Below are positions 1-53,338 of a DNA stretch of 64,000 nucleotides, piece by piece. The stretch comes from Enterobacteria phage vB_EcoM_IME540. The notes beneath the pieces were generated by a model. That model worked only from the letters and a program-made list of their open reading frames with translations. It ran no database searches and had not been told where the DNA came from. Within the stretch, counting starts at the first letter, position 1. Every line of letters starts with the position of its first letter. The position numbers and the translations under genes are program-made. The stretch is taken from sequence record MT150133.1; one strand, written 5' to 3'.

Positions 1-609
1 TACGGCCTGGCCAGTTTCCTTAGAAACATAAACTTCGCCAACTTTAGACTCAACCTTAGTATAAAGCTCGGCATCAATTTCAGGCATACCCTTAATATCT
101 TCAATATTAGTGCCACGACGTACTAAAAGAACATAGGTATGTTTTCCGGTGAATTGGTACATGGCATCAACAACTTTAAACTTACCACCAGTACGAGCCA
201 TAGCTAAACGAGCTAATACACGCTGAACAGTAGGACCCTTACCTTTCATTTTCTTGGTAGGGAACCGGAAAAGAACTGCATCCATTTTAAGTTTGTTTAC
301 TTGTTCGTATACAGTATCAAAAATGGTATTCAGCGTACCAAGTGGGTCAGAACCTAACCCACCTTTCAACTCGGCTGGGCTACCCTTAGCAGACAAACTC
401 ATCAAAATAACATGAACATATTTGTCTCCGGGCTTAACCATTTTAATAGCGTCTCCTTGAGACGCATAAGATACCATACGAGCAACCAGGTTATCATTAC
501 CTGGCGCTTTAATAGAGAAAATCTGTGGGATACCGGAACCTGGTTTAAGATTTATTACTGGATAGTTTTTATCGGAATCACTATCAAAAACCTCGTTTAA
601 ATTTTCCAT
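1..609 (-). CDS. Alt-family ADP-ribosyltransferase paralog, N-terminal 203 codons; gene continues beyond window start
   Basis: ATG at 609 on minus strand, in frame to position 1; my translation (MENLNEVFDSD...KMKGKGP...YQFTGKHTY...) is clearly homologous to the N-terminus of the adjacent 694-aa Alt-like ORF; nucleotide similarity of 1-200 to 2100-2300. Confidence 0.7.
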   Translation of the reverse strand, partial: MENLNEVFDSDSDKNYPVINLKPGSGIPQIFSIKAPGNDNLVARMVSYASQGDAIKMVKPGDKYVHVILMSLSAKGSPAELKGGLGSDPLGTLNTIFDTVYEQVNKLKMDAVLFRFPTKKMKGKGPTVQRVLARLAMARTGGKFKVVDAMYQFTGKHTYVLLVRRGTNIEDIKGMPEIDAELYTKVESKVGEVYVSKETGQAV

Positions 610-612
610 TAT

Positions 613-2697
613 TTACCCTTGGATGAATTTTTCTGGGATGTCATAGAGGTCTATGCATGAAGCCAAAAGAGGCAGTACATCAAACCGTGTAGATTTAACA
701 AATGAATCAAAAGATACGGGGCTTTCGGAAGTATCGAAGTCATCTTGATATACGACCAACTCGCCGGTTTCCATTAGTACGTCACCATCATATACCACAG
801 ATTCTTGAAGCTCATCTGTTGTCATAACTTCAGCTTGGATGAGTTTTGTATTACTAGATGTTGTTCCATCATTATTAGAAGCATCTGTTATTTTATTAAC
901 TTTGACCATTAATCCACGCGGTAGAATAACTTCGGCTTCAGTTGCTATTCCGAGATTTCCTGGATATACGACATTAACTTTATGAGCCCCATCAATGGCC
1001 CATCCTATTTGAACCTTAACGTAATCGGGATTTTCCTTATACGCTCTTATTTCATTAGGATTAATAGTTATTCCTTCTTCATTTTTATCAACTGTCAATT
1101 CGTTGCGAACTTCCGGTTCTAAAAGACCAATACCAGCGTGCGTAACACCAAAACGTCCGAAAATTATAGGAGTTAAAGAAGTAGATACAAAATTTCTAAA
1201 ATAAAACACTTTATTTTTAACTAGTGCTTCGTATATAGGAGCAGTCATACTCTGGGCACGATAAACTGTAATGCCTTCCGGTATACGGTCACCATTTTCA
1301 AAAGCTGAATCTAAATTATTTACAGCGGATTCGATATCTTTTTCGCTCATAACCTCATAGTTCTGAGGATTATAACGTCCTAAAAGAAGATTATTTATGT
1401 CTGTATATCCTGAACCACAATATTCTCTGATGCCGCGCTTTTGTGATGGGGTATATTTAGAGCCCTCACGAGCAATAGTAATATCGACCATAATACCACC
1501 ACCTACACCAGCAAAACTATACACACGTTTTTTAATGAACTTAGTCTTGGCTGCTTTCCACTTGGACTCGGTTAATTCATTCCAGACGTCGTCAGGTTGG
1601 CCTTTACGAGTTCTGTTATGGATAGCCAGCCACTCGCCTTTATATTCTTCGAAAATGGTATTAATGGTAGAGGCATATTTTTCCAGGGCTTTAACAGATG
1701 TCAAAGGTTCATTTTTGATAGCTGTAAGAATTTTCTCTTTAATTTTCTCTTGGATTTCACCAATACCGTGAAGTGGGAACAATTTATAGTCGTAATGCAA
1801 TTCTTCAGCAGTGCCTTCAGCTACTATATTAGCAACCTTATTTTTAGCCGCAGGAGAATTGTTATTAGTGACCATTTCCTGGGCCTCAGGGATTAATGGA
1901 ACTGTTGCCGGTTTATTAAAATCTACTGCAGTAGCTTCATATTTCTTAAACAGCTCACTTTCATTACGATAAGATTCTAACGATTGACTTGCCGCAATAG
2001 CACGTCGAGAAATCTTAGTCTTGGTTATAACCATTTTATCAGTGCGACGTTCTTCAACCTTAGCAATACTACCGGCGATAGCAGTTTCTTTAGTAACCTG
2101 CACGCCTTCTTTTTTAGAAATATAAACTTCACCGACATCAGAATCTACCTTAGTATACAATTCAGCATTAATTCCAGGCATACCTTTGATATCTTCTATA
2201 TCAGCTTGTTTACGAACTACCAGGATGTAAGTATGTTTACCGGTAAATTGGTACATAGCCGGAACTACTTTAAAACGTCCACCTGTTTTCTGTGCTACCA
2301 AACGTTGGATAATCCGTTGAACGATAGGGCCTTGACCTTTCATTTTCTTAGTAGGGAAACGGAACATCACGGCATCCATACGAAGCTTTTTAACTTGGTC
2401 ATAAACCACATCAAAAATAGTATTAATCGCATCTACGGGAGTAGGGCCTAGGCCACCTTTAAGTTCGGCAGGCGAACCTTTAGCTGAAAGGCTCATAAGG
2501 ATAACGTGGGCATATTTATCACCCATCTTAACCTGTTTAATAGCATCACCTTCAGAAGCGTAGGATACCATACGCGCCACTAATTGGGATTCTGCGTCAC
2601 CAATCTTCCAAATCTGGGGTACTTTAAGTTTTGGGTTCAAGTTTACTGTAGGCAGTGTGCCTTCGGACTCAAACACTTCATTTAATTGTTCGGTCAT
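613..2697 (-). CDS. alt: Alt-like ADP-ribosyltransferase (virion-packaged ART of T4)
   Basis: 694-aa ORF; length and position next to ligase match T4 Alt (682 aa); C-terminal region has ART-like motifs (YRAQS...FVSTSL); identification from memory of T4 Alt. Confidence 0.75.
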   Translation of the reverse strand: MTEQLNEVFESEGTLPTVNLNPKLKVPQIWKIGDAESQLVARMVSYASEGDAIKQVKMGDKYAHVILMSLSAKGSPAELKGGLGPTPVDAINTIFDVVYDQVKKLRMDAVMFRFPTKKMKGQGPIVQRIIQRLVAQKTGGRFKVVPAMYQFTGKHTYILVVRKQADIEDIKGMPGINAELYTKVDSDVGEVYISKKEGVQVTKETAIAGSIAKVEERRTDKMVITKTKISRRAIAASQSLESYRNESELFKKYEATAVDFNKPATVPLIPEAQEMVTNNNSPAAKNKVANIVAEGTAEELHYDYKLFPLHGIGEIQEKIKEKILTAIKNEPLTSVKALEKYASTINTIFEEYKGEWLAIHNRTRKGQPDDVWNELTESKWKAAKTKFIKKRVYSFAGVGGGIMVDITIAREGSKYTPSQKRGIREYCGSGYTDINNLLLGRYNPQNYEVMSEKDIESAVNNLDSAFENGDRIPEGITVYRAQSMTAPIYEALVKNKVFYFRNFVSTSLTPIIFGRFGVTHAGIGLLEPEVRNELTVDKNEEGITINPNEIRAYKENPDYVKVQIGWAIDGAHKVNVVYPGNLGIATEAEVILPRGLMVKVNKITDASNNDGTTSSNTKLIQAEVMTTDELQESVVYDGDVLMETGELVVYQDDFDTSESPVSFDSFVKSTRFDVLPLLASCIDLYDIPEKFIQG

Positions 2698-2719
2698 AAT
2701 AATTCCTCTTTAATAACCT

Positions 2720-2727
2720 TATTTATG
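2720..2727 (-). promoter_or_regulatory. possible late promoter variant for alt
   Basis: CATAAATA on minus strand ~25 nt upstream of alt ATG. Confidence 0.3.
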
Positions 2728-2733
2728 CCAGAA

Positions 2734-2749
2734 AAGGCCCGAAGGCCTT
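2734..2749 (-). terminator. UUCG tetraloop hairpin
   Basis: AAGGCC-UUCG-GGCCUU on minus strand between small ORF and alt; weak U tract. Confidence 0.45.
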
Positions 2750-2751
2750 TA

Positions 2752-2934
2752 TTAAAGTACTAACAGCGTACGGTACACTTCAAATTTAGGACCCTTTTCA
2801 TAGCGGTCGAAATTATCTTTAAAATCAGCGAACGCGATTTCATTTTCAAATTCAAGGACAATTTGGGACACTGCAGTGGAGACATCCCCACCTTCTTTAT
2901 ATCCAATAACCACGGTTTCTAAATAAGCTTTCAT
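2752..2934 (-). CDS. hypothetical small protein
   Basis: ORF track 2752..2976; start trimmed to ATG at 2934, directly after the ligase stop; start uncertain. Confidence 0.3.
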   Translation of the reverse strand: MKAYLETVVIGYKEGGDVSTAVSQIVLEFENEIAFADFKDNFDRYEKGPKFEVYRTLLVL

Positions 2935-2935
2935 A

Positions 2936-4459
2936 TTATAGACCAGTTTGAGACCAATCACCGAATACATCTTCAAATGTATCAGCTTCTGTTTTATCGA
3001 AACGCCAACCTTTAATGATTGGAAGGAAAATACCTACAGTATCAGTACGTCCTTTAGAATGAACCCAACCATTACATTCACAGTCAGCAATACGTCCAAT
3101 CAACTTACCTTCACGAGCTTGTTTCATAAGAAGTTCACGGTCTAAATCAGGACGGTCTTCCAATGGAATCAATACCTTTTTACCTGATTTATCTTTCTTA
3201 TGGGTAGTATCTTTAAAGCCTGAACCACAGTCACTTGTAATTCGACGACAACGTGATACTAACTCAACACCACCTAGTTTGTTAGGGTCCTTCGAGTGTT
3301 CATAATAACCTACCACTTCTAAAGCGATATCGATTACTTCTTTGAACTTGATAAGATTCTTAGAACGGCGGTTTTCCCAGTAGGAGTCCATGTTCTTAAG
3401 GATAATGCCTTCCAGACCTTGGTCGACATATTTCTTATAAACGACTTTAGCTTCTTCAAGATTATTAACCCACTGGTTTTCGATAGCTTCAACACGCGTT
3501 GTGCCATGCAATACGACATTATGAGCCACCATAAGTTCTAAGGCTGTAAAGCGTACATCATACTTATCGCCTTTAATTTTGCCTTCAGAATACACGACAT
3601 CCAGTGGGACATAATCCCATGCCTGTAATACCATACCAGCGGCTTCAGTAGCCGAAATAGTTCCTTGAAGAGCCTTATTAGCCAATCCATTTGACGTAGA
3701 ACGATCGGCGACAGTTTGGAATTCCTTAGCCTTACTTAATTCAGGAAGTTCCTCGTCAAACATACTAAACAAATCATTAGATGCTTTAGGTTCTACCTTA
3801 GGAGTATGGTAAACTAATTCGCCATCAATCATAACGCCATTAGGATGGCGTTGTCGAGCTTCTTCGGTCATGGCCATTAATTCAGCCGCCAAAAGATTAA
3901 GCCCTTGATATTCGTTACCACCACGAGTAAGGAATGTCACACCATCGTTACGAACTTCGGCAAAACAACGAGCACCATCAGCTTTTAATTGAGCAAACGC
4001 TGGCCATTTAATATTTTTCTTAATCAAAGCTTCATCATAAGAACTCGCCAACATCTGCGGTTGTTCAGGGATTAAACCTTTCCAAACCTTGTTAGCAATA
4101 GAAATCGATGCACCACATTCAAGGTCGCGCATCATTACACGACGTAATACCTCGGCATCCGGGGCCTTAGCATCAGCAATGATTTGAGCCAGTTCTTCAA
4201 TAGCCGCATTACCCGTAATCTTACGTGTGGCTAATGTGAATTCAGCGAAATCAAGAAGGTCTTCAAGAGTAATCATACCAAAGGATTGAGATGTAAATCC
4301 AGGTTCTGGCCACTTTTTAATACCGTAGTTCAGACGACGGGTATAAGCCATACGATAAACACGTTTCAGAAGCTCATTGTCCTTTTCACGAGCAATAATG
4401 GCTTCTTTAGCTTTAGTAGAATCAATAGCAGCAATTTCGTTTAAAATATCTAAAATCAT
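2936..4459 (-). CDS. 30: ATP-dependent DNA ligase
   Basis: Strong resemblance to T4 gp30 (MILDILNEIA..., KADGARC adenylation motif); start set at MILD ATG rather than the upstream ORF-track start. Confidence 0.92.
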   Translation of the reverse strand: MILDILNEIAAIDSTKAKEAIIAREKDNELLKRVYRMAYTRRLNYGIKKWPEPGFTSQSFGMITLEDLLDFAEFTLATRKITGNAAIEELAQIIADAKAPDAEVLRRVMMRDLECGASISIANKVWKGLIPEQPQMLASSYDEALIKKNIKWPAFAQLKADGARCFAEVRNDGVTFLTRGGNEYQGLNLLAAELMAMTEEARQRHPNGVMIDGELVYHTPKVEPKASNDLFSMFDEELPELSKAKEFQTVADRSTSNGLANKALQGTISATEAAGMVLQAWDYVPLDVVYSEGKIKGDKYDVRFTALELMVAHNVVLHGTTRVEAIENQWVNNLEEAKVVYKKYVDQGLEGIILKNMDSYWENRRSKNLIKFKEVIDIALEVVGYYEHSKDPNKLGGVELVSRCRRITSDCGSGFKDTTHKKDKSGKKVLIPLEDRPDLDRELLMKQAREGKLIGRIADCECNGWVHSKGRTDTVGIFLPIIKGWRFDKTEADTFEDVFGDWSQTGL

Positions 4460-5388: not shown

Positions 5389-5852
5389 AATAAATCTCTC
5401 AATTTGTTTAGGATGTCGATAAACTCTTTTTCAGTTAGTATTGTATCACATTCTGTAAGGTGGCTCGCCATCGAATGCTTTAAAACTTTGCCCTTTGTAG
5501 CTTGTAATGCGTCGCGGAATCCTTTGTTTTGGAGCGCTGCTTCAAAATAAGCATTTGTATACAACTCTTTCCATGATGCAGAGTATCTTGAAAAGGGAAT
5601 TCCAAGCCAGAACAGCGTCCCACGGTCCGCAGCTCTAGCATAAGCTCTTCCAGTTTGTTGTGCGGCCAGACCGGACATCCCAAATATACGTTTTTGTTGT
5701 TCATGATTTCTCACCTTACATCCTTGGAGGAATCCTTCGAGCCCACCAAATTGGATACCATCCATAACGAAAGGCCATTTAGCAAAGTTACTTAATGCAC
5801 ACGATGGCCATGGAAAATTGCTTCTTATTTCTAACTCAGACATCTTTGACAC
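5385..5852 (-). CDS. NADAR (YbiA/DUF1768)-like protein
   Basis: LSNFAKWPFVMDG segment resembles the conserved SNFAAWP..DG core of E. coli YbiA; 155 aa, typical NADAR size. Confidence 0.55.
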   Translation of the reverse strand: MSKMSELEIRSNFPWPSCALSNFAKWPFVMDGIQFGGLEGFLQGCKVRNHEQQKRIFGMSGLAAQQTGRAYARAADRGTLFWLGIPFSRYSASWKELYTNAYFEAALQNKGFRDALQATKGKVLKHSMASHLTECDTILTEKEFIDILNKLRDLL

Positions 5853-6048
5853 TTATAATTTCGACATCAGCCCAATGACCATAACCAGGTAGACGGTCTT
5901 CAATAGATAATCCGCCATCAGATTTCAGCATTTTAATTGTTTTAGTATATGGTTCATCTTGCGGATGCACAGGAGATAAATCAGTTACACGATAAGTCAC
6001 TTCGACCATTTCCGTACCTAATAATTTCTGAATCAATTTCTTAAACAT
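5836..6048 (-). CDS. hypothetical protein
   Basis: ORF track, compact minus-strand operon context. Confidence 0.4.
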   Translation of the reverse strand: MFKKLIQKLLGTEMVEVTYRVTDLSPVHPQDEPYTKTIKMLKSDGGLSIEDRLPGYGHWADVEIISVKDV

Positions 6049-12985: not shown

Positions 12986-13276
12986 TCATTTGCACTTCCC
13001 CTCTTTTAGTCCAGAACGATAATAACATAACATAGATTTCTGGTCTTGTACATATCTTTTTACGTCATTCAACCAAATACGATGTTCTTGGGAGTCTTCG
13101 AAAGGCATTCCAACCCAGGCCTTACCGTCGATTACCTTAACCTGCCATTTAACATTATGTTCGGCGATAGGTTGTGGCCATGAAGGATGCAGTTGTTGCT
13201 TAGGCACTACAGGGATGTCCTGGGCACATCCAACTAACAAGCCAATAGATAATACTACCGCAGATAATTTAATCAT
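12986..13276 (-). CDS. o-spanin (outer-membrane lipoprotein, Rz1-like)
   Basis: Signal peptide with lipobox LVGC, proline-rich mature region; 4-nt overlap with upstream i-spanin; position as T4 pseT.2/pseT.3. Confidence 0.7.
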   Translation of the reverse strand: MIKLSAVVLSIGLLVGCAQDIPVVPKQQLHPSWPQPIAEHNVKWQVKVIDGKAWVGMPFEDSQEHRIWLNDVKRYVQDQKSMLCYYRSGLKEGKCK

Positions 13277-13626
13277 TCTGTAATGCTCCTGAAGTCTTCT
13301 GTAAAGGAATCGAAGGACTTGTTGATTTGTTTTTCGACCAATCCTGGCTTACTTGCCACCACGTGCGCCTTCTTCGAATCTTTACGGAGCTTTTCATTTT
13401 CTACCTTAATTTTATCCATTCGGGCATTCATTTCAGTAGTACGGAATTCAATATCAGAGTATTGGCCACGTAGGTCCTCTACAGCTTCAGCGTTCTGTTT
13501 AGCCGTTTGCTGGGTAGTTTTCAGTTCTTCAGTAAGAGTATCAATACGGCTTGATTGATACGAAATAAAACCGTAAGCACCTACTGCAATGGCTCCAGCT
13601 AAAAGGTAAATACTTAATTTAGACAT
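13273..13626 (-). CDS. i-spanin (inner-membrane, Rz-like)
   Basis: N-terminal transmembrane segment (LSIYLLAGAIAVGAYGFI) followed by charged coiled-coil-like region; paired with downstream lipoprotein. Confidence 0.7.
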   Translation of the reverse strand: MSKLSIYLLAGAIAVGAYGFISYQSSRIDTLTEELKTTQQTAKQNAEAVEDLRGQYSDIEFRTTEMNARMDKIKVENEKLRKDSKKAHVVASKPGLVEKQINKSFDSFTEDFRSITE

Positions 13627-49330: not shown

Positions 49331-51148
49331 TTACGACATCCAGGCCTTACGGAGTTGAGGGTCATTACCAAGGAGCATTTCGAACTGTTCTTTCCAATCT
49401 TCAGGTAATTGAACAACATCAAATTTAGGGTCTTGAATCATTCGGCGGTATTCAGCTTTCTCAAGAGAACCTAGTCCTTTGATATACCGAATAGAATGTT
49501 TTGGTAGAGAGTCCTTAGCTTTGGTATAACTAGGAACATCATAGAACCATTCCTGTTCTTTACCGACCTGGGCAATAATTACCGGAGTTTTACAGAAACG
49601 TACTCGGCCTTGTTCGAACAATTCAGGCCATTGACTAAAGAAGGCTAGCAATGATGGATAAATCGAACCAGTACCATCCACATCGGCATCGGTCATAATA
49701 GCAATATTACGATAGTTGGTTTTCTCTGCGGGTTCACCAATAACCAATCCAGTGATTGCACAGATATCAAATAGTTCCTTGTTCTTCATGATATCTGTTG
49801 CTGTCATTCCCCAGGTATTCATAACCTTACCACGTAATGGATAGCCACCTTGAAGGTCTTTATTACGGACTTCAATGAAAGGACCCATAGCGGAATCACC
49901 TTCGGTTAGGAACAGGGTTGTATCAGCATCTTTGCCGTATAAGTTAGCTTTAATATGCTTATGGACCTTGGCTTTAGAAGCTTTCTTAGCGGCTTTAGTT
50001 TCAGCGGCCTTTTCAGCTGCTAATTTACGTGCTAAAGCAGCTTCAACGATAGGCATAATCAACCCATCGACCTTAAGAATAGCTGTGGCAATTTTCTTAG
50101 CATCAATTTGGATATGATTGCGAATCTCACCAAAAGGAGAGGTCAAACGTTCTTTAGTCTGTGAATCAAAACGCATGTTGCTCATATCACGAATGAACAT
50201 CACCATCGTAAGGCATTCTTTAACACGAGCTTTAGTTACTTCAATTCCACGGTATTTCTTTTTAATGCCTGGCAGAAGGTGTTCACAAATATCATCGAAT
50301 ACACATTCAACGTGGTGGCCACCATTCTTGGTGTGGATATTGTTTACATAAGTCAGTTGACGGAATCCATCCGGAGAAGGAGTGAACGCCATCGAAACAT
50401 TATCGGTTTCTTGGATTACAAAGTCTTCACCAAATTGCTTAGCATACTTTTTAAAGTTGCCATCTACTTTTTTACCATTAAAAGTAAATTGAATATCAGG
50501 ATAAACTACGGCCAGAGTTTGCAATCGGTCTAATGTAATATCCAGATAAATTTGTGACAGGCTATTTTCTTCGAAATGATTAAAGTCTGGGGTGAATATA
50601 ACCGAAGTACCCTTACCTTTAGATTTCTTAGTAGACCAACCTTTGTTTTCCATTCCGTTTGAACAGTTAACAGTAATCTCATTCTCACCATCAGAGGTGA
50701 TGCCTGTGAACAAAACAGAGAAGATATTAGTTAAACTACTACCGACACCATTCATGCCGCCTGTCTTACGCTCAGCGTCATCTCCAAAGTTACCACCTGC
50801 CTTTGGAATAGTCCATGCAGCTACAGGACCTGGAATCTGTTCACCATTTTGGTCGGTGACCATTGCTTGTGGAATACCACGACCATTATCAGAAACTGAA
50901 ACCTGGTTATTCTTAATTTGAACATCAATTTTATTTGCGAATTTAAAATTGGTACGAATAGCTTCATCGACAGAGTTATCAATGATTTCATCAATTAATT
51001 TAACCAGTCCAGGAACATAGTTTACCTGTGTAAAATTACCAAACAGGAATCGACCGTGAGCTTCATTAGCACTTGAGCCAATATACATCCCACTACGTTT
51101 TTTGATATGTTCAATGTCGGACAGTACTTTAATTTCATTCTTAATCAT
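49331..51148 (-). CDS. 39: DNA topoisomerase II large subunit (GyrB-like), single fused ORF
   Basis: 605 aa continuous ORF with GHKL ATPase and TOPRIM regions. Confidence 0.92.
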   Translation of the reverse strand: MIKNEIKVLSDIEHIKKRSGMYIGSSANEAHGRFLFGNFTQVNYVPGLVKLIDEIIDNSVDEAIRTNFKFANKIDVQIKNNQVSVSDNGRGIPQAMVTDQNGEQIPGPVAAWTIPKAGGNFGDDAERKTGGMNGVGSSLTNIFSVLFTGITSDGENEITVNCSNGMENKGWSTKKSKGKGTSVIFTPDFNHFEENSLSQIYLDITLDRLQTLAVVYPDIQFTFNGKKVDGNFKKYAKQFGEDFVIQETDNVSMAFTPSPDGFRQLTYVNNIHTKNGGHHVECVFDDICEHLLPGIKKKYRGIEVTKARVKECLTMVMFIRDMSNMRFDSQTKERLTSPFGEIRNHIQIDAKKIATAILKVDGLIMPIVEAALARKLAAEKAAETKAAKKASKAKVHKHIKANLYGKDADTTLFLTEGDSAMGPFIEVRNKDLQGGYPLRGKVMNTWGMTATDIMKNKELFDICAITGLVIGEPAEKTNYRNIAIMTDADVDGTGSIYPSLLAFFSQWPELFEQGRVRFCKTPVIIAQVGKEQEWFYDVPSYTKAKDSLPKHSIRYIKGLGSLEKAEYRRMIQDPKFDVVQLPEDWKEQFEMLLGNDPQLRKAWMS

Positions 51149-51200
51149 GTTATTTCCTCATGTAGTAGGAGAATATTATCCCATTTCACTTAAAGCATAA

Positions 51201-51216
51201 AAGGGCCGAAGCCCTT
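51201..51216 (-). terminator. UUCG tetraloop hairpin
   Basis: AAGGGC-UUCG-GCCCUU immediately after lipoprotein stop, upstream of gene 39. Confidence 0.5.
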
Positions 51217-51475
51217 AATCAAATCGAATGGTCGACTTTTTAAAGAATAAACCAGAACAAACAGTCCCTTCAACCCTTTTACCTGTCGGACCCACAGCAA
51301 TAAAGCCTGTACGTTGGAAATCATCTTCAGAACAGCCAAATAGGTTGTATCCTGTGATTTGGATTTGTTCGTAGCCATTTGCATCCAATACACGGGTAGC
51401 ATTATCGCCATCAGTACATCCAACCAACGAAACCGCTAATACGAGAGCTGCAATAGAACGATTAATATATTTCAT
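51215..51475 (-). CDS. predicted lipoprotein
   Basis: Signal peptide ending in lipobox LVGC; 86 aa. Confidence 0.5.
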   Translation of the reverse strand: MKYINRSIAALVLAVSLVGCTDGDNATRVLDANGYEQIQITGYNLFGCSEDDFQRTGFIAVGPTGKRVEGTVCSGLFFKKSTIRFD

Positions 51476-51481
51476 AATTTC

Positions 51482-51658
51482 TCACTTAGTCAGCAGGTCG
51501 TAAAAACCGCCATTAACATGTTTAGGAGCCGAGACTAACCGAACAGCCAGCCGATGGCAATCAGGACAAACATCATTATCTCTTTCAGAGATTTTCTTGA
51601 TTTTTTCGTATTCTTTTGCACAGTCTTCAGATTGGCATTTGTAATCATAAAGTGGCAT
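51482..51658 (-). CDS. small zinc-ribbon protein
   Basis: CxxC...CPxC pattern (YDYKCQSEDC...VCPDCH); ORF track 51482..51751 trimmed to MPLYDYK ATG. Confidence 0.4.
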   Translation of the reverse strand: MPLYDYKCQSEDCAKEYEKIKKISERDNDVCPDCHRLAVRLVSAPKHVNGGFYDLLTK

Positions 51659-51869
51659 TATAAGTTTCCTTCCAGAAGTCGGTGCCTTCAGCAGTGATTT
51701 CACGGAACACCGCATAGATAGGGTTTTTATCACCTTGATTTTCGTATACATAAACCGATGATAAATGAGAAAACATATCAGAATGTTCCTTTTGGACCAC
51801 GATTAAATCAGGGTTGAACAGAACATCTTCAAATTCTTCACGAGTCGAGTTCATAGTAACTTTAGCCAT
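51645..51869 (-). CDS. hypothetical protein
   Basis: ORF track; own early promoter. Confidence 0.4.
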   Translation of the reverse strand: MAKVTMNSTREEFEDVLFNPDLIVVQKEHSDMFSHLSSVYVYENQGDKNPIYAVFREITAEGTDFWKETYNATL

Positions 51870-52509: not shown

Positions 52510-52582
52510 AATTTTTCTCTCTTGGTTAAAGGTTTATAATCCATGAGAGCCATTATAACATGGCTCTCGATAAAGTAAACTA

Positions 52583-53338
52583 TTAATTCAATACATTAAC
52601 CACTGCACTACGAGGTACTACACTAAAATCACCAGCATGGACAACGTTCAGGAGCTCAACACCATCTTCAACCCACTGGTCTGTTACCCAACCACAGATA
52701 GGATTATCAAAAGGACGACGGATAGACACAGCAGCACACAACAGGTCGGTAGGGTCTTGTTCTTCAACTTCTTGGAACAGGATTAACTCTGCTTCATAAA
52801 CCAGGTTTTTCTCTACTTTGTTATTATCTAACCGGCGACCGTGGATGACATAAGATTTGGCAAACCAGTCACTTTTGGCAAATTCTTCAACAATAAATTC
52901 GCCTTCGCCAAAAACAGCAGTCAGAGTTTTATAACCAGAAATCAAGGCCTTAGTTTTAATTTCAGGTTCAACCAGTTTGTAGGTTTTGCCGATTTCGATA
53001 GTCTGAGTAGTCATAGGTGATTCCTTAATTTCCAGTGGTTTAACAGGGCATACATAAGTGCTTAAAACATCAAAATCAATTAGCTGGCTTGCCATTGGGG
53101 CCAAACGAATAAATGAATCAATTTCCCGTTGTGACAAGCGAATGGTGTGGATTTCCGGGACACCGCATTCTTGAACTGTTACAGATTTAATATTATCAAA
53201 CTCATCAGGTTCAATAGAAAGAATACGGAACTCGGTACCTTTAGTCATCTTTTTAAGGATGTCATAAGCTTGGTTGTGGAGCTTAAGGGCTGAAAACGGC
53301 GTAACAATATATTTGGCATTCGGATCAAAAGTGTTCAT
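52583..53338 (-). CDS. hypothetical protein, paralog of 51943..52509
   Basis: Shared C-terminal motif with neighbour; 251 aa. Confidence 0.5.
   Translation of the reverse strand: MNTFDPNAKYIVTPFSALKLHNQAYDILKKMTKGTEFRILSIEPDEFDNIKSVTVQECGVPEIHTIRLSQREIDSFIRLAPMASQLIDFDVLSTYVCPVKPLEIKESPMTTQTIEIGKTYKLVEPEIKTKALISGYKTLTAVFGEGEFIVEEFAKSDWFAKSYVIHGRRLDNNKVEKNLVYEAELILFQEVEEQDPTDLLCAAVSIRRPFDNPICGWVTDQWVEDGVELLNVVHAGDFSVVPRSAVVNVLN

Follow-up and report, generated by a model that had tools for sequence, protein, structure and literature searches.

The gene that adjoins the topoisomerase gene 39 in the early region of Enterobacteria phage vB_EcoM_IME540 is an already annotated, ordinary ortholog of T4 gene 39.1, and belongs to a very widespread and uncharacterised phage family whose members for the most part share a lipoprotein signal and have a small conserved domain. 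The explanation that accounts best for the evidence as a whole, and to which we assign a probability of roughly 0.55, is that its product is an early accessory lipoprotein acting as a membrane-tethered binding module in the protection or conditioning of the host envelope. The stretch of DNA analysed, 64,000 nucleotides of record MT150133.1, is referred to below as the window, and coordinates are those of the window unless another record is named.

Identity of gene 39.1 and its form in the T4 reference

The open reading frame lies on the minus strand at 51215..51475, opens with an ATG, closes with a stop codon at 51215..51217 and encodes an 86-aa prolipoprotein, MKYINRSIAALVLAVSLVGCTDGDNATRVLDANGYEQIQITGYNLFGCSEDDFQRTGFIAVGPTGKRVEGTVCSGLFFKKSTIRFD. 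A first-pass annotation of this DNA had reported an 86-aa ORF next to gene 39; its coordinates, length and sequence proved exact, and its strand is minus. Gene 39 itself (49331..51148, minus), identified by Pfam and PHROG as encoding the 605-aa large subunit of topoisomerase II, is separated from it by 66 nt, 39.1 being the upstream gene. Both are part of a run of minus-strand genes that fills 49-55 kb of the window (39, 39.1, 39.2, cef, motB, motB.1, motB.2, dexA) and whose order is common to the window, IME08, ABTNLsp5 and T4; a 39.1 gene between 39 and 39.2 is also present in T4T and T6. The window DNA is 93-97.5% identical to that of Dhakavirus ABTNLsp5 (Salmonella), MX01, QL01, WG01 and IME08 (Escherichia), and the phage is a Dhakavirus, a JS98/IME08-like member of the T4 type.

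The predicted protein matches the profile of PHROG 902 along its full length (residues 1-85, E=1.8e-34), and is 98% identical to gp39.1 of JS98 and 78% identical to gp39.1 of resequenced T4. Records of IME08, ABTNLsp5 and T4 annotate the gene at this position as '39.1', hypothetical protein; PHROG 902 is a family of unknown function, to which UniRef and some Klebsiella phage records attach the label 'Lipoprotein'. Judged from its position, length and lipobox, the window gene is the syntenic ortholog of T4 gene 39.1, and we see no difference of substance between it and gp39.1 of T4 or JS98: they are the same gene. Comparison with the T4T ortholog yields a dN of 0.165 and a dS of about 2.0, a ratio of 0.08 obtained with saturated synonymous sites. 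Because of the PHROG 902 match, the matches in more than 1,000 phages, this dN/dS ratio and the conservation of the lipobox Cys, we conclude that 39.1 is a real gene under purifying selection.

One circumstance could be read otherwise. In RefSeq, gp39.1 of T4 (NP_049622) is a 65-aa protein that begins at an internal ATG and lacks both signal peptide and lipobox, as would be expected if the window ORF had arisen by chance or if its N-terminus merely resembled a lipoprotein signal. Against this stand the dN/dS ratio of 0.08, the presence of the lipobox Cys in 200 of 214 relatives, the full 86-aa prolipoprotein encoded by the resequenced T4 genomes listed and the detection of the T4 protein by proteomics as given in the supplement of PMC9697503, and we regard a non-functional ORF as extremely improbable. 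The T4 reference (NC_000866/AF158101) and the old entries M89919 and X06220 depart from the resequenced T4 genomes listed by about 11 clustered differences, which are substitutions and indels in the 3'-terminal part of 39.2 and the 5'-terminal part of 39.1. The divergent stretch extends over 5390..5860 of NC_000866 and 140..615 of T4T (HM137666), equivalent to 51205..51680 of the window, and the reference frame upstream of the annotated 39.1 reads MKYISRSIAALVLAVSLINSTDAD-stop. T4T encodes an intact 86-aa prolipoprotein with LIGC as well as a 39.2 of 58 aa, as against 45 in the reference, and MT984581 has the same CDS coordinates as T4T for both genes. The reference form of 39.1 most likely stems from early sequencing errors that were carried into the annotation, which may explain why gp39.1 of T4 has not been treated as a lipoprotein. 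A broken 39.1, or pseudogene, in T4 was considered and rejected, the gene being intact in every resequenced T4 listed. In the T2 record PV648364.1 (88..455), the 39.1 ORF is unannotated and a wrong-strand ORF is called across it.

A conserved lipoprotein signal

The signal peptide consists of residues 1-19 (51419..51475, minus), with MKYINR as its n-region and SIAALVLAVSLVG as its h-region. On reading the sequence, two basic residues, K2 and R6, are seen to precede a hydrophobic stretch of 13 residues devoid of charge (S7-G19), and the core pattern of PROSITE PS51257 is satisfied with the Cys at position 20. The lipobox L17-V18-G19-C20 (51416..51427, minus) marks Cys20 as the residue predicted to be acylated and to begin the mature protein, with T21 at +2 and D22 at +3. 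The full-length AF2 model renders the signal peptide as a helix apart from the domain.

Family conservation was assessed throughout on an alignment of 214 diverse relatives of 39.1. The lipobox Cys is aligned in 200 of them, the strict PROSITE core pattern ending exactly at this residue in 172. Position -1 is Gly, Ala or Ser in 190 relatives and position -3 is mostly Leu, while position +2 is occupied by Thr (159) or Ser (21) in 180 of the 214 and by Asp in none. The lipobox signal is thus kept across the family where the remaining signal peptide varies. The earlier assignment of a signal peptide and LVGC lipobox to the 86-aa protein is borne out by the PROSITE pattern and by the family-wide Cys, and the product is almost certainly a small lipid-anchored periplasmic protein. 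Thirteen full-length relatives without the lipobox Cys carry an N-terminal hydrophobic segment instead, and about 6% of the relatives would appear, from their sequences, to have a transmembrane anchor in place of the lipid. Since the Cys-less relatives keep a hydrophobic N-terminus, the membrane tether may be seen as the conserved feature and lipidation as its usual means.

Asp at position +2 acts as a Lol-avoidance signal under the E. coli +2 rule. The window protein has no Asp at +2, as expected of a lipoprotein sorted to the outer membrane by Lol, and because this position in the family is Thr or Ser and never Asp, the +2 rule, which is the sole basis of this localisation, predicts Lol-dependent transfer of 39.1 to the outer membrane.

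Expression context

A promoter scan located a T4-type early promoter upstream of motB (52552..52579, minus), GTTTAC ... TGTTATAAT, with a 10/12 match and a TG extension, the layout being GTTTAC, 16 nt and TG-n-TATAAT. No terminator-like sites were found by sequence scan on the minus strand between this promoter and 51216. The scan does report as terminator-like a GC-rich hairpin, AAGGGC-TTCG-GCCCTT (51201..51216, minus), which overlaps the stop codon of 39.1; the hairpin at the same place in T4 is AAGGCC-TTCG-GGCCTT, a compensatory C-G to G-C change, and in some phage records the matched 39.1 region carries a terminator annotation. We infer that the hairpin is a terminator or RNA-end element closing a motB-cef-39.2-39.1 unit and that the promoter upstream of motB is the likely source of the 39.1-containing transcript. 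Given an early promoter and the lack of a terminator ahead of the hairpin, 39.1 would be the last gene of this early unit. The gene immediately upstream, 39.2 (51482..51658, minus), encodes a 58-aa zinc-ribbon protein (Pfam Zn_ribbon_8, E=6e-11) and has a 177-nt annotation in ABTNLsp5. Between its stop and the start of 39.1 there are 6 nt, a spacing from which the two are probably co-translated.

Time-resolved omics data in the supplement of PMC9697503 class T4 39.1 as 'early RNA, late protein' and record the protein as detected; the gene is therefore transcribed early, and its protein is detected and accumulating. The placement of the gene in the early region, which had been proposed from the window alone, is sustained by the early promoter, by the absence of a terminator until the hairpin and by the early RNA that this supplement lists for the T4 ortholog.

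Other features of this part of the window were recorded in passing. Just past the 39.1 hairpin, TGCTTTA (51197..51191) is followed after 12 nt by TAATAT (51178..51173, minus), the T4 counterpart of the site being TAGCTTTA ... TATAAT; from its sequence, 51173..51200 resembles a MotA-dependent middle promoter that would serve gene 39 and partly overlaps the terminator tail. Between 39.2 and cef, goF is absent from the window (51482..51869), MX01 and ABTNLsp5 and present in IME08 (2681..3507 compared), WG01, T4, T6 and RB69, and in the window cef and the start of 39.2 share 14 nt. At the motB.1 position (52583..53338, minus) the window encodes a 251-aa protein that matches PHROG 2333 over its whole length and whose last 40 residues give a hit to the MotB Pfam family (E=1.3e-8). 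The motB.1 CDS is much shorter elsewhere (564 nt in IME08, 360 nt in T4), and by sequence this gene looks like a size-variable MotB paralog beside motB.

Fold and conservation of the mature domain

The mature periplasmic domain of 67 aa (51218..51418, minus) is predicted from AF2 modelling and conservation to comprise a helix followed by a four-stranded antiparallel sheet. A model of the mature part built on 148 sequences (pLDDT 84.9, pTM 0.72) and a full-length model built on 30 (pLDDT 79) agree on one helix and then four antiparallel strands. In the model, the linker from Cys20 to the start of the helix is only about three residues long, so that the domain would lie close against the membrane.

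Of the 214 relatives, 203 have Cys at positions 48 and 73 alike, and a C48-C73 disulfide in mature 39.1 is probable. D52, T56, F58, A60, G70, V72, K79, T82 and R84 are each kept in at least 200 of the 214. In a subfamily of 26 relatives, S74 and S81 switch jointly to Cys/Cys within the motif VCCG...KxCT[IV]R; the two residues are modelled as facing each other on neighbouring strands, a placement that the joint change fits and that lends support to the AF2 prediction, and the change implies that a second disulfide links strands 3 and 4 in these 26 proteins. Many of the invariant residues in a domain of 67 residues may be structural, and hence no proof of a conserved partner. Mature 39.1 is acidic (pI 4.9), and about 30 of its positions are variable, variable surface positions among them; these 30 or so positions could tune specificity.

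Searches for known relatives of this domain brought no match in Pfam (E<=1), NCBIfam or PADLOC (0 families at E<=1), and a PHROG scan at E<=0.01 returned no family besides 902. A profile search of PDB sequences gave noise only (E>1), a Foldseek comparison of the mature-domain model with the PDB yielded nothing below an E of about 0.9-0.97, and a fold search of BFVD recovered family members only. The modelled topology is compatible with small inhibitor-type alpha+beta rolls, a resemblance that is not diagnostic.

Distribution and genomic neighbourhood

By tblastn, matches to 39.1 were found in 1,064 of 50,697 phage records, and a profile search of 1.84 billion representative proteins collected 2,195 clusters (50% identity) at E<=0.001. 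The gene occurs in T4-type phages of Escherichia, Shigella, Klebsiella, Enterobacter, Yersinia, Serratia, Citrobacter, Cronobacter, Salmonella, Aeromonas and Vibrio. Outside the T4 type, homologs are found in the 45-kb Pseudomonas phage YA3, Sinorhizobium phage phiN3, the Ackermannviridae Serratia phage 3M, a 300-kb Klebsiella phage and a Pandoraea prophage related to Burkholderia phage Magia. The family spans unrelated phages of alpha-, beta- and gamma-proteobacteria. None of the homologs listed comes with a precomputed Pfam domain, and their length, 80-90 aa in nearly every case, is that of a single domain. A pattern scan of a 185,579-species genome collection returned 5 loci; of the two that were characterised, one is phage contamination and the other a prophage.

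The neighbours of 39.1 vary, and include small early or accessory genes, recombination or replication genes and, in one temperate element, an integrase. Neither a tail-fibre gene nor a recurrent partner nor a lysis cassette adjoins 39.1 in the loci examined, and six metagenomic contexts likewise contain no recurrent partner. The 39.2 zinc-ribbon gene was considered as a constant companion and rejected, the small upstream genes of YA3, phiN3 and 3M being unrelated to it. As the neighbours differ, fused domains are lacking among the homologs listed and the two cellular loci characterised trace to a contaminant and a prophage, we conclude that the 39.1 family is phage-specific, stand-alone and horizontally mobile. 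Bacteroidota hosts, to which assemblies of Flagellimonas and Chitinophagaceae had pointed, were rejected; the Flagellimonas contig is a contaminating enterobacterial T4-like phage genome. This 'Flagellimonas marina' contig (NZ_JBHSCL010000010.1, 178,077 bp) shares 96-97% identity with Enterobacter phages EC-F1 and EC-F2 across 12.2 kb, and the 39.1 homolog it carries is 100% identical to versions from T4-like phages of Klebsiella, Cronobacter and Enterobacter. In Serratia phage 3M (3307..3771), the homolog (3M_105) lies directly upstream of 3M_106, which is annotated as 'putative superinfection exclusion protein'; this is a single case.

RB69 (NC_004928) lacks 39.1 between 39 and 39.2, and the gene is therefore dispensable. 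Its place is taken in this phage by an unrelated 140-aa ORF, RB69ORF005c (3048..3470), and T6 (MH550421, 835..1472) possesses both 39.1 and an ORF005c-like gene. Because RB69 and T6 differ in their content of 39.1 and ORF005c, we conclude that the junction of 39 and 39.2 is a hotspot for the gain and loss of small accessory genes.

Receptor masking as an improbable rival

One role that a small early lipoprotein brings to mind is lytic conversion of the Llp or Cor type, in which 39.1 would inactivate the outer-membrane receptor used by its own phage by binding it from the periplasmic side, so blocking superinfection and preventing the loss of progeny on cell debris. Several features are shared with Llp of T5: both are small early phage lipoproteins in which a very short linker follows the acylated Cys, both have conserved cysteines in their mature parts and an expected periplasmic location, and 39.1 has variable surface positions of its own. 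Cor of T1, phi80 and N15 shares with 39.1 the class of phage-encoded outer-membrane lipoproteins.

The distribution of the protein nonetheless speaks against receptor masking, which the first-pass annotation had raised as one of two common functions of early phage lipoproteins. The receptors of T4, T2 and T6 are OmpC/LPS, FadL and Tsx, respectively. The mature 39.1 of resequenced T4 is identical to that of T2, and that of T6 differs at one residue; with receptors so different and mature proteins identical or nearly so, 39.1 is unlikely to serve as a simple mask for the receptor of its own phage. The same conclusion follows from the breadth of the family, since the distribution of Llp is narrow and linked to the receptor: Llp is confined to 34 T5-like phage records, as compared with the 1,064 phage records of 39.1, which extend over many host genera and phage types and include unrelated phages of Pseudomonas, Sinorhizobium, Serratia, Vibrio and Pandoraea. 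The receptor-matched, one-receptor distribution that characterises the Llp family is thus not that of 39.1. Alignment of the family profile with Llp by hhalign pairs 18 columns of the signal peptide only, with no similarity in the mature part, and Llp is absent from the fold-search matches of 39.1. Nor did 39.1 match any Cor-type PHROG (E<=0.01) or Pfam (E<=1) family. Genes for receptor-binding proteins are never adjacent to 39.1 in the loci examined; it sits among early genes, whereas Cor genes adjoin tail-fibre genes in small siphoviruses (PMC11990801). Llp, as it is described in PMC9586334 and 10.64898/2026.03.26.714494, is a lytic conversion lipoprotein that blocks FhuA. Taking both sides together, we consider an Llp/Cor-type function of 39.1 improbable.

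Lysis as an improbable rival

The window encodes a further lipoprotein with LVGC, the 96-aa o-spanin at 12986..13276, which overlaps its i-spanin partner, a 117-aa membrane-anchored protein at 13273..13626. That 39.1 is distinct from this spanin lipoprotein, as had been supposed, agrees with the finding of the canonical pair separately at 12986..13626. The signal peptide and lipobox of 39.1 are similar to those of o-spanins (Rz1, T4 PseT.3), and 39.1 is a lipoprotein of a phage with a Gram-negative host, which would suit a lysis-related protein, be it another o-spanin, a spanin of the unimolecular kind or one that regulates when lysis occurs. In the Pseudotevenvirus EC-F1, moreover, the endolysin gene is found about 1.1 kb downstream of the homolog; the two are four genes apart, and we regard this proximity as coincidental. 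A complete i-spanin/o-spanin pair is already in place, and 39.1 has neither an adjacent membrane-anchored partner, its neighbours being 39 and 39.2, nor a C-terminal transmembrane segment. O-spanins are typically proline-rich and largely unstructured, whereas 39.1 is predicted to form a folded globular domain. It is also part of an early unit, and no lysis genes adjoin it in the other phages examined. We hold a function in lysis to be very improbable.

A candidate envelope-protection module

Our searches of the literature on gp39.1 and on T-even phage lipoproteins found no functional study. We propose that the product would, as its signal predicts, leave the cytoplasm through Sec, acquire its lipid on Cys20 and lose its signal peptide to signal peptidase II, and that its helix, packed on the four-stranded sheet and pinned by C48-C73, would then be held against the membrane surface in the periplasm. 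So placed, 39.1 may act as a small membrane-tethered module that binds or inhibits another protein or envelope component. Its likely partner would be a periplasmic or envelope component common to proteobacterial hosts, or one common to incoming phages. The transmembrane-anchored variants, presumably of the inner membrane, sit uneasily with a partner found strictly in the outer membrane and argue against one.

The most plausible outcome of such binding would be protection or conditioning of the envelope, for instance superinfection exclusion that is independent of the receptor and resembles that of Spackle or Imm in logic, not in structure. Superinfection exclusion, the other function suggested for the protein at the outset, may apply to it in a receptor-independent form, as may envelope protection more generally. 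Imm is an inner-membrane protein. Together with Spackle (Sp) of T4 it provides the nearest functional analogy, both being early, envelope-directed and receptor-independent accessory proteins of T-even phages, although a sequence relationship of either with 39.1 was not detected by any search. Spackle is presented in PMC7677548 as a periplasmic inhibitor of the gp5 lysozyme.

A rival reading has inhibition directed at an enzyme of the periplasm. As a tethered inhibitor, 39.1 would act on a peptidoglycan hydrolase of incoming phages or of the host or on a periplasmic protease, in the manner of MliC/PliC-, PepSY- or cystatin-like proteins. Lipid-anchored and non-lipobox forms of 39.1 coexist, and the known families of lysozyme inhibitors display the same split; the broad distribution of 39.1 would suit a widely shared target, and the model bears a weak resemblance in fold to such inhibitors. 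The resemblance is, as stated above, compatible with this reading and not diagnostic of it, and we judge a dedicated enzyme inhibitor unlikely, if appreciably less so than a receptor mask. More speculatively, and with a probability well short of that of the envelope-protection module as a whole, 39.1 might found a new class of envelope effectors, tethered, disulfide-locked and early, that phages of many lineages would use against one conserved target in the proteobacterial envelope or in the penetration machinery of incoming phages, with receptor-independent exclusion or a stabilised envelope as the result and a mechanism unlike those of Imm, Spackle, Llp and Cor. Such a class may have escaped notice in T4 through the loss of the signal peptide from the reference sequence.

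Two gains follow for annotation: the entry for this family can be made firmer, as a predicted early outer-membrane lipoprotein that is unlikely to be a receptor mask, and the annotation of the T4 reference can be corrected. The gene is carried by T2, T4, T6 and more than 1,000 other phages, including many therapeutic T4-like phages of Klebsiella, Enterobacter and E. coli. Should 39.1 prove to have a defined envelope target, it would be a widespread and receptor-independent player in phage-phage competition and host takeover, and a factor of this kind could affect the behaviour of phages in cocktails.
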